Source of the DNA: Octopus sinensis
Lineage: Eukaryota
NCBI RefSeq assembly: GCF_006345805.1
Contig: NW_021824040.1
Coordinates: 1-20,163, forward strand
DNA length: 20,163 bases
Direction of reading: 5' to 3'
The position numbers and the translations under genes were made by a program. Below are positions 307 to 3,345 of this stretch, piece after piece (the first letter of the stretch is position 1; each line of letters opens with the position of its first letter). The notes beneath the pieces were generated by a model. It was not told where the DNA came from. It did no database searches and worked only from the letters and a program-made list of their open reading frames with translations.

Positions 307-756
307 ATAACAAAAGGGACATTAGCCATTTGAATGTGGCTAGGGACAGGGCAGGGCGGTGGGGGTGTTACTGTTGCATTTAGCCCCAGGCGAACATCAA
401 CGTCACCAGAAAGGCTTGACACCATCACGGCGTCCTCTATCCTGCAAAGGGAGATCATCCACCGAAGAAGCGGAAGCCACATACGACCAGGTTTTTCGAG
501 GTCCTTTGCCGCTCGTCAACGTATGGTAGGCATCGCCCTTCGATGAACGACTCTCCATGCAGGATATTTATATAAGATGTTCCGTAAAAACATTTACTGA
601 TTTCGAAATCTGTTCGACAGCAATAATAATTCTCTAAACGAGATATAGACAGTAACTGCTCCATAACAAAGGGACATTAGCCATTTGAATGTGGCTAGGG
701 ACAGGCAGTTATGGAGCAGTTACTGTCTATATCTCGTTTAGAGAATTATTATTGCT
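307..756 (-). mobile_element. Non-coding insert in (TA)n with terminal direct repeat and terminal inversion; candidate retrozyme-like or non-autonomous Penelope-type element
   Basis: Direct repeat 307-354 vs 663-708 (ataacaaa(a)gggacattagccatttgaatgtggctagggacagg(g)cag; period 356). Perfect 49-bp inverted repeat 619-667/708-756. (TA)n on both sides. Hammerhead-like motif on the minus strand at 480-525. The structure is seen directly; the class and strand are inferred. Confidence 0.55.
480..525 (-). ncRNA. Degenerate minimal type I hammerhead ribozyme-like motif
   Basis: Minus strand reads CAUAC-g-UUGACGA-GCGGCAAAGGACCUC-GAAA-aACCUGG-UC-GUAUG. Stem I CAUAC/GUAUG, near-CUGANGA core, GAAA, near-palindromic ACC(U)GGU stem III, GUC cleavage triplet. 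Core has C->U, extra bases and a weak stem II. Confidence 0.35.
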
Positions 757-2365: not shown

Positions 2366-2375
2366 TACAAACAGT

Positions 2376-3345
2376 ATGATTCAAATTCATGGATACTCTC
2401 AAGAAGCGTACCCACCCACATAAGTCGGTCCTCTAATAGGGACGATGGCCTGACTATCTCAAGCCATAGGAACGGCCACAGCATGGACAGGTTCAGGAAG
2501 GACTTGAATGAAATATTCAAGGAGTTCGTCCTGTCCGTAACGGTTACCGCCAACCTGACTACGGTCGATTTCTTAGACGTAAATTTAAACCTGGATAAAG
2601 GCAAATATTACCCTACAGGAAGCCTAACGAGGAAACAGTATAAGAACACAAATCATTCCCCCGTTGTAATTAGAAATCTAATCTCTCGGCAAATAGAGAG
2701 ATCTTCAGCAGGGCTGCCCCCACTGCTTTGACTAGGAGCGGATTTACTGAGAAGCTCACGTATGTGGACAACGTCCAAACATCCTGTCCTCACCCCAAAA
2801 GGATTAGGAAAAGGAAAATTATATGATAAAACCCCATTTTAAAAACAGACGTTTCCACCAACACTTCCCCAGAGGCCACAAGTATTATAAACTCTTCAAT
2901 CCTCATGTCAAAATGAGCTACTCCTGCTTAGACAACATCATCCCAACCCCAACCTGCAACTCCCGAAACCCTGACAGGTGCCCTCTAGAAGGATCCTGCC
3001 TCTCAAGGGACGTAGTATACCCCATCCGATAGCATTACTAGGCACTATACGGATATGATAGCTAATACGGGTATGACAGCTAATTACTTCAAGAGAAGTT
3101 GCTCCCAGCATATGCACTCGTTCAGAAACAAGGACAGAAAAAAAAAACTGTACTTCCCTGTCTCTTTTTCTCTGGAGACTCCGTGACCTCCGAGACGAAA
3201 CACCCATCATCAAGTGGACTATTGTTGACGGAACACCACCATATTCACCCGGTGACCCCAACTGTCAGCTCTGCATATCCTCCAATAACCGGCAGTACCC
3301 ATCAATAAGAAATACGATTTATCTTATTGCTGTTGCCAGAGGTAT
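2376..3345 (+). mobile_element. Decayed, 5'-truncated Penelope-like retroelement: RT C-terminal/thumb region plus GIY-YIG endonuclease (pseudogenised; Naiad-like motifs)
   Basis: Translation across frameshifts: RDDGL (2438-2452)...MDRFRKDLNEIFKEF...VDFLDVNLNL..GKYYPYRKPN...NHSP; RKRKII**NP; HFPRGHKYYKLFN..VKMSYSCLDNI; CNSRNPDRCPLEGSCLSRDVVY; TGMTANYFKR; HMHSFRN; TSLSLFLWRLRD; IKWTIV...PY...NCQLC; NKKYDL..CC. Motif order matches PLE RT-linker-GIY-YIG proteins. Multiple stops, frameshifts and deletions. Confidence 0.9.

Follow-up and report, generated by a model that had tools for sequence, protein, structure and literature searches.

Metazoan non-LTR retrozymes are described, in the portions available of PMC7229834 and bioRxiv 10.64898/2026.07.22.740005, as tandem units of 150-450 bp with a type I hammerhead in each unit and a GC content below 50%, which generate target duplications of more than 4 bp and coexist with Penelope-like elements (PLEs). 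In the axolotl ribozymes, helix III is short and palindromic and helix II has a U·U base, and a link between retrozymes and PLEs has already been proposed in both sources. Insertions of endonuclease-bearing PLEs are partial tandems with an inverted, 5'-truncated copy, a preference for TA targets and a tail, a known PLE signature often found on one end (PMC8557442; PMC3846280, as far as available). Their target duplications are near 10 bp and the tail is bounded by two start sites of reverse transcription (PMC8557442; PMC11167929), which in vitro lie internally. The accessible part of the latter study further reports that both strands are nicked and extended in vitro by the PLE protein, for which a dimer is predicted, and that the start sites showed no difference between strands. 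MRC1 of Chlamys is non-coding and multicopy, with head-to-tail insertions that were attributed to a PLE (PMC8557442, in part). Neither the mobility of animal retrozymes nor the origin of the inverted, one-tailed insertions of Penelope elements is settled in the field.

The element analysed here lies at positions 307-756 of a 20,163-nucleotide stretch of Octopus sinensis DNA (the window), and its family shares with the retrozymes, the PLE insertions and MRC1 the features listed for each of them. It departs from the retrozymes in its inverted two-armed insertions, its tail and its two start sites, which are not described in the available portions of the retrozyme literature, and in a ribozyme core that is mostly U3·G8 or U3-A8, unlike that of the published families in those portions. 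A PLE with a similar end is reported for 24 of 57 Xenopus retrozyme families (bioRxiv 10.64898/2026.07.22.740005, in part) and none was found here; cleavage and circles have been demonstrated for published families, whereas the octopus family is known here from sequence. Compared with PLE insertions (PMC8557442; PMC3846280; PMC11167929, available text), it has no ORF and a tail of 44-46 nt instead of 30-40 nt. The published tail is called optional or often one-sided, whereas that of the octopus was counted as strictly one of each, with both arms from the same RNA variant, a rule that constrains the mechanism more than the published description does. Finally, Chlamys elements generally resemble an autonomous family at their 3' end and their clade is described without canonical hammerheads (PMC8557442, in part), while the octopus family has a hammerhead, and no similarity was detected between its 3' end and coding PLEs. 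Taken together, it is a new member of the known non-LTR retrozymes and is very likely moved by a PLE. The class itself is already known, so that the value of the family lies in mechanism rather than in a new kind of element.

The direct repeat, the inverted 49 bp and the (TA)n flanks of the original prediction were all recovered in the window. Positions 307-354 recur at 663-708 with two homopolymer indels and an exact core of 38 nt (313-350 and 668-705), and 619-667 and 708-756 form a 49-nt inverted repeat with 100% complementarity. The whole of 307-756 represents one insertion of a dispersed, non-coding tandem family with a unit of about 358 bp (Table 1). Arm A could be aligned to the unit over 307-705 (399 nt). 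Arm B stops 3 nt beyond site A, and we propose to read this copy as an event in which arm B halted at that site. The predicted unit size of 356 bp holds for this copy and not for the family, where units measure 356-361 bp (358 bp in the subfamily of the window). Compared with the family, this copy is damaged in stems II and III and in one C of the cut site. The copy carries 7 indels against a close relative, compared with 0-1 in six other copies, and the one contig covering 484-504 had the family sequence there in 4 of 4 public runs; the damage therefore probably reflects consensus errors of this unplaced contig. A TATA-like, AT-rich stretch at about 565-575 (minus strand), just before the ribozyme rod, is found at the same place in three families, and a promoter role would be a guess.

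Table 1 Features of the insertion at 307-756 and of its flanks, in window coordinates
Feature	Position	Strand
(TA)n target run, left flank	276-309	none
Arm A, 1.1 units with the outward 3' end at site A (307-309); the minus strand is the RNA sense	307-707	-
One full unit, 356 bp in this copy, 358 in its subfamily	309-664	-
Start of second unit (terminal redundancy of the original prediction); random 5' truncation point	665-707	-
Tail, 46 nt from start site A to start site B, inside arm A	619-664	-
Arm B, inverted, 49 nt, outward 3' end at site B (756)	708-756	+
(TA)n target run, right flank	756-817	none
Type I hammerhead fold, damaged in this copy	480-525	-
Hammerhead helix I	525-520 with 484-480	-
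Hammerhead core	519-513	-
Hammerhead helix II	512-498	-
Hammerhead GAAA	497-494	-
Hammerhead helix III	494-486	-
Predicted hammerhead cut	near 485/484	-
Long rod with hammerhead at its tip (model match)	443-561	-
Hairpin just upstream of start site A, kept in all aligned families	323-342	-
Predicted helix, 5' side (partner in tail, 650-656), enclosing start site A in tandem or circular RNA	367-373	-
Small predicted hairpin in tail, upstream of start site B	631-643	-

The unit is multicopy, as had been anticipated. At least 135 unit matches were found in the best 40 of 1,750 candidate regions, and an 18-nt core motif matched the genome 2,138 times, its reversed control once. At least 8 subfamilies can be told apart among full units, and the natural monomers compared were 78-93% identical. 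Three sister families share the layout, giving at least four families; the two that were aligned have units of 350-357 bp and are 53-66% identical to the window family and to each other. The tail motif is kept in all four families, and its degenerate form gave 5,824 matches against 0 in the control. No open frame beyond about 75 codons was present in the unit, unit lengths vary out of frame and the GC content is 43-49%. Judged by ORFs, lengths and GC, the units thus have the lack of coding capacity and of LTR structure and the GC below 50% of a retrozyme, and the 130 distinct insertions described below, together with the motif matches, show the dispersed tandem units of about 150-450 bp expected of one. 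With hammerheads in its units, tandem and TA-flanked copies and no tie to an ORF, the family bears out the predicted non-LTR retrozyme with a Penelope-type footprint. The suggestion that it is an undescribed cephalopod family holds for the literature searched, in which we found no description either of the family or of the strict pairing of its ends; supplements, Repbase and Dfam lay beyond that search, and the family may be catalogued there.

Folding four monomers as circles (40 shuffles each) gave z scores between −3.1 and −8.4 for the ribozyme strand; those of the opposite strand lay between −1.4 and −6.6. The family is present in contigs of four public runs. The contigs, guessed to be RNA and possibly of DNA origin, covered all 28 bins of the unit, and a 358-nt go-back joint, which is expected equally from a circle or a tandem, was seen in 3 of the 4 runs.

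To describe the insertions, we first discarded duplicates and loci truncated by an edge; of the remaining 135 clusters, 5 below 80% identity (sister families or old relatives) were excluded, leaving 130 distinct insertions. Their outward-facing 3' ends (n = 213) fall at site A in 100 cases and at site B, 46 nt further along the RNA and corresponding to 619/756 of the window, in 102. The predicted circular permutation of start points was thus not borne out, with 202 of 213 ends at two sites. All 74 of the 83 two-ended inversions in which both ends were on site paired A with B; A+A and B+B did not occur and 9 had an off-site end. Of these pairs, 26 came from loci picked by the B motif, which could therefore not be A+A, and 48 from loci picked otherwise. 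Inversions of sister families were A+B in 13/13 and 6/9, again with no like-with-like pair. Fixed ends abut a TA run in 176 of 202 cases. In the 47 insertions that lack TA on at least one side, direct repeats of at least 8 nt occur in 13 (4% in mismatched controls at this length), and 9 of these 13 are target duplications of 11-12 nt, longer than the 4 bp that published retrozymes exceed. Together with the inverted 5'-truncated arm, the one-sided tail and the AT-rich or TA target, this is the footprint of a PLE.

Inner ends, in contrast to the fixed outer ones, are spread over the unit. A arms have a median length of 327 nt and a maximum of 1,673 nt, and tandem arms reach about 5 units, so that tandem copies and TA-flanked insertion were found as foreseen. 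Because arm lengths vary so freely, the redundancy of one unit plus 46 nt loses the diagnostic value first given to it: the meaningful 46 nt are the tail that separates the two fixed start points, and the terminal redundancy is an accident of truncation. A predicted helix joins the tail to a segment lying 60 nt upstream of site A. Like two hairpins, it is kept in three families, where covariation is modest (5 cells, 2 pairs), the two pairs with double changes belonging to the helix of 367-373 with 650-656.

The predicted cut site is crossed by 117 of 202 arms, with neither a pile-up of arm ends at the site (2 seen, 1.5 expected) nor an excess of indels (2 seen, 3.6 expected). A pile-up of 5' ends at the cut site that had been suspected by eye, and would have pointed to cut linear monomers as templates, was discarded (8 seen, 7.0 expected at 173-186). 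Rare variants are common to units of one arm at 61 in 23,430 positions (2.6/kb) and to the two arms of an insertion at 75 in 27,625 (2.7/kb), about 30-fold above the 107 in 1,224,355 (0.09/kb) common to different insertions. Discordant rare variants exceed shared ones both within arms (336 vs 61) and between arms (417 vs 75), the sharing between arms is seen in 26 of 68 insertions alone, and gene conversion could be another source of it. Both arms belong to one subfamily in 66 of 68 insertions. At L030:1495-2223 and L031:1265-1995, on different contigs, the arm lengths and the junction are the same and the flanks differ, which suggests that a whole inverted insertion was once copied at the DNA level.

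The hammerhead-like motif predicted on the minus strand is present at about 480-525. A covariance model built from 42 other copies, with the window copy excluded, matched 443-561 on this strand with 100 bits (E 1e-26), and the next match in the window reached 10.7 bits. A search of the window against Rfam gave no hammerhead family up to E 10, and generic hairpins alone remained below threshold. The fold common to the family is that of a type I hammerhead: helix I has 6 bp plus an outer extension, helix II has 3-4 bp and helix III is very short. It is matched by 133 of 144 segments that span the ribozyme site. Over the 42 sequences, pairing is seen in 95% of cells and double changes in 29, where shuffling gave 9.5 ± 2.6 (0/500; relatedness uncorrected); the closing base pair of helix II is unpaired in 21 of 41. 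The minimal type known from PLEs, with 7-8 bp in helix II and 4-5 bp in helix I, had been expected, and the dimensions found instead identify the canonical metazoan type.

Helix III is self-complementary in 169 of 178 distinct contexts across families: 97 are perfect palindromes of five different sequences, 72 are palindromes with G·U pairs and 9 are neither. As a hairpin it would be unfavourable (computed at +2.9 to +6.0 kcal/mol), whereas a duplex between two copies was computed at −4.8 to −11.4 kcal/mol in six of seven tested copies and at −0.7 kcal/mol in a mutated one. A hammerhead with such a palindromic helix III is predicted to work as a dimer, which is how the canonical metazoan hammerhead acts according to the available portion of PMC4209133. 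At core positions 3-8, the 178 contexts have C-G in 29, U-A in 56, U·G in 93 and C-A in none; C3-G8 or U3-A8 is therefore found in 85, of which 22 have C at position 4. U3-A8 is a natural variant already known (PMC4209133, in part). The CUGANGA core of the original prediction was not found in the young subfamily of the window, which has UUGACGA and so belongs to the U3·G8 contexts. U3·G8 was not met among active variants in the available portions of the hammerhead literature searched, and from its sequence the activity of the ribozyme in this subfamily is therefore uncertain. Sister families at L250:1783-2098, L211:830-1225 and L340:1160-1570 each have a palindromic helix III of their own; one of the three has C at core position 4 and one U at position 17.

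The genome contains young coding PLE families with long ORFs. Their clades were assigned by motif, since a Pfam search of 4 PLE proteins returned 0 families. Family 1 carries RWK, DKT and CxCX5C, which are motifs of the Hydra clade (PMC8557442, available portion), and families 3 and 4 carry CxCX5C; family 6, with DKG and a CX2-5CxxC linker, is Neptune-like. Inverted copies of coding PLEs pair a short with a long end in 15/15 cases, 9/9 in families 1, 2 and 4 with tails of about 70-76 nt and 6/6 in family 6 with a tail of 41-43 nt. Family 6 also has a U3-A8 core and a CCGG loop as in two retrozyme subfamilies. We therefore regard family 6 as a lead, the best candidate partner, with a tail that fits better than those of the Hydra-like families. 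Beyond AT-rich noise, the unit showed no DNA similarity to the ends of families 1-5 (40 loci) or family 6 (30 loci), and the best 150 scored matches of a genome search with the covariance model were copies of the family, with no PLE partner among them. A GTAAC...TTAC helix that families 1 and 2, both Hydra-like, appeared by eye to share at the short end was a post hoc observation and was not seen in families 4 and 6. The PLE at 2366-3345 (plus strand) of the window, a decayed and 5'-truncated copy that starts in a TA run and retains a remnant of the Hydra-like CxCX5C linker, had been offered as a possible mobiliser. It is frameshifted, its closest relatives are at 67-73% amino acid identity and it has no DNA similarity to the unit, so this copy is not itself the mobiliser.

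Several single loci are of separate interest. L378 (G000:C12:43803300-43812700) represents a young Neptune-like PLE family with a tail of 41-43 nt and a U3-A8 hammerhead, whose 3' region is very long and of low complexity. The Hydra-like PLE at L121:2936-5450 is nearly full-length; its open frame has 717 codons, its hammerhead carries C at core position 4, and it gave no Pfam match. One block between TA runs at L138:5490-7930, the same locus as L007, combines a retrozyme A arm with a family-4 PLE and an inverted fragment of that PLE's 3' UTR. At L016:1144-2970, also between TA runs, a 2.3-unit A arm is joined to a 5'-truncated family-1 PLE that ends at its short end; the block could be either a hybrid insertion or a deletion between neighbours, and as a single event it would break the pairing rule.

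The explanation that we favour, and consider probable, is a non-coding, hammerhead-bearing tandem retroelement of the non-LTR retrozyme type, likely inserted by a PLE enzyme of the same genome that would copy one probably circular RNA from two fixed points into both strands of a cut, TA-rich target. The circular RNA and the partner enzyme are steps that we infer rather than observe. Transcripts of tandem arms would fold two hammerheads as a dimer, cut, and ligate to a circle of about 358 nt. The PLE protein, probably as a dimer, would bind the structure around the tail and make a staggered cut about 11 nt apart; one DNA end would prime at site A through 2-4 nt of ATA homology and the other at site B. 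Each cDNA would then run for a variable distance, sometimes for several laps, and the inner cDNA ends would be joined with little or no homology to give head-to-head arms, with each inverted insertion drawing on a single RNA variant and starting from a different site on each strand. Of the possible templates, a circle accounts best for arms of several units that have variants in common and for the clean read-through of the cut site. A more specific version, which we advance tentatively and hold to be somewhat doubtful, is that an asymmetric PLE dimer on a single circular ribozyme RNA of about 358 nt primes both strands of the 11-nt staggered cut simultaneously, with site A invariably serving one strand and site B the other, while rolling round the circle, that the helix and hairpins around the tail are a portable signal that recruits the PLE without homology, and that young subfamilies spread with a U3·G8 core. 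The lack of a strand difference reported in the available text of PMC11167929 counts against the favoured explanation, as do the U3·G8 core of the window's subfamily, the often unpaired closing pair of helix II, the failure to find a coding PLE with DNA similarity to the unit, the surplus of discordant rare variants and the junction at L016. With a non-coding substrate of 358 nt, sister families, fixed starts, target duplications and intact-looking PLEs, the system is small and suited to a direct test.

The same element and enzyme may instead take as template a linear multimer that stays uncut, or two RNAs together, the ribozyme being weak or irrelevant to transposition and multimers being renewed by template jumps or by expansion at the DNA level. 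The U3·G8 core of the window's young subfamily would fit this, as would the in vitro result that ribozyme mutants had no effect on insertion and that uncut RNA was the main substrate (PMC11167929, in part), and clean read-through of the cut site agrees with uncut RNA as well as with a circle. We nevertheless think it unlikely: the hammerhead fold, including the palindromic helix III, is kept across families that are only 53-66% identical, rare variants recur between consecutive units of an arm 30 times more often than in the background, and although linear arms could only become shorter on copying, 24 of the 77 arms sampled by the core motif are longer than one unit.

It is very improbable that a coding PLE yet unseen supplied the copies as its truncated pseudo-LTR ends. 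Coding PLEs do leave the same insertion footprint, the ORF screen was queried with four Hydra-like proteins and barely detects Neptune-like ORFs, and 2 of the 130 insertions abut PLE sequence. These two junctions, however, involve rearranged or truncated pieces of two different families, and no fixed junction of the unit to an ORF (RT plus GIY-YIG) recurs among the 130, against the alternative, considered at the outset, that all copies are the fixed end of a known coding PLE. The unit was present in 1 of 20 copies of PLE family 4, whose 3' end it had been a candidate to be. What precedes a unit on its 5' side is a further unit, in series of as many as five, and never a shared ORF-bearing sequence; no other recurrent sequence was found 5' of the unit in the 130 insertions, and inner and outer flanks differ from locus to locus. 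That the inversion and the repeat arose as an assembly artefact or by a DNA-level fold-back rearrangement of a satellite is scarcely credible. The unplaced contig of the window, the excess of indels in its copy and the identical junction of L030 and L031 in different flanks would speak for such an origin, but the same architecture occurs on many large contigs, with two fixed ends, strict A+B pairing and duplications of 11-12 nt, and the contigs of all four public runs contain the family. An artefact, named beforehand as grounds for rejecting the prediction, is thereby made very improbable as the source of the architecture.

TA runs of this genome collect stacks of hammerhead-bearing elements, and the flanks of L033, L043, L081, L098, L161, L193 and L236 hold at least 5 further, unrelated hammerhead-bearing repeats that end in TA runs. 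Elsewhere in the window, a repeat with a tRNA-like head, which may be SINE-like, lies between TA and TAGA runs at 1047-1345. A degenerate TTAGGG-containing array occupies 12375-12538, and beside it, at 12592-12969, is a 31-bp minisatellite of 12 copies.
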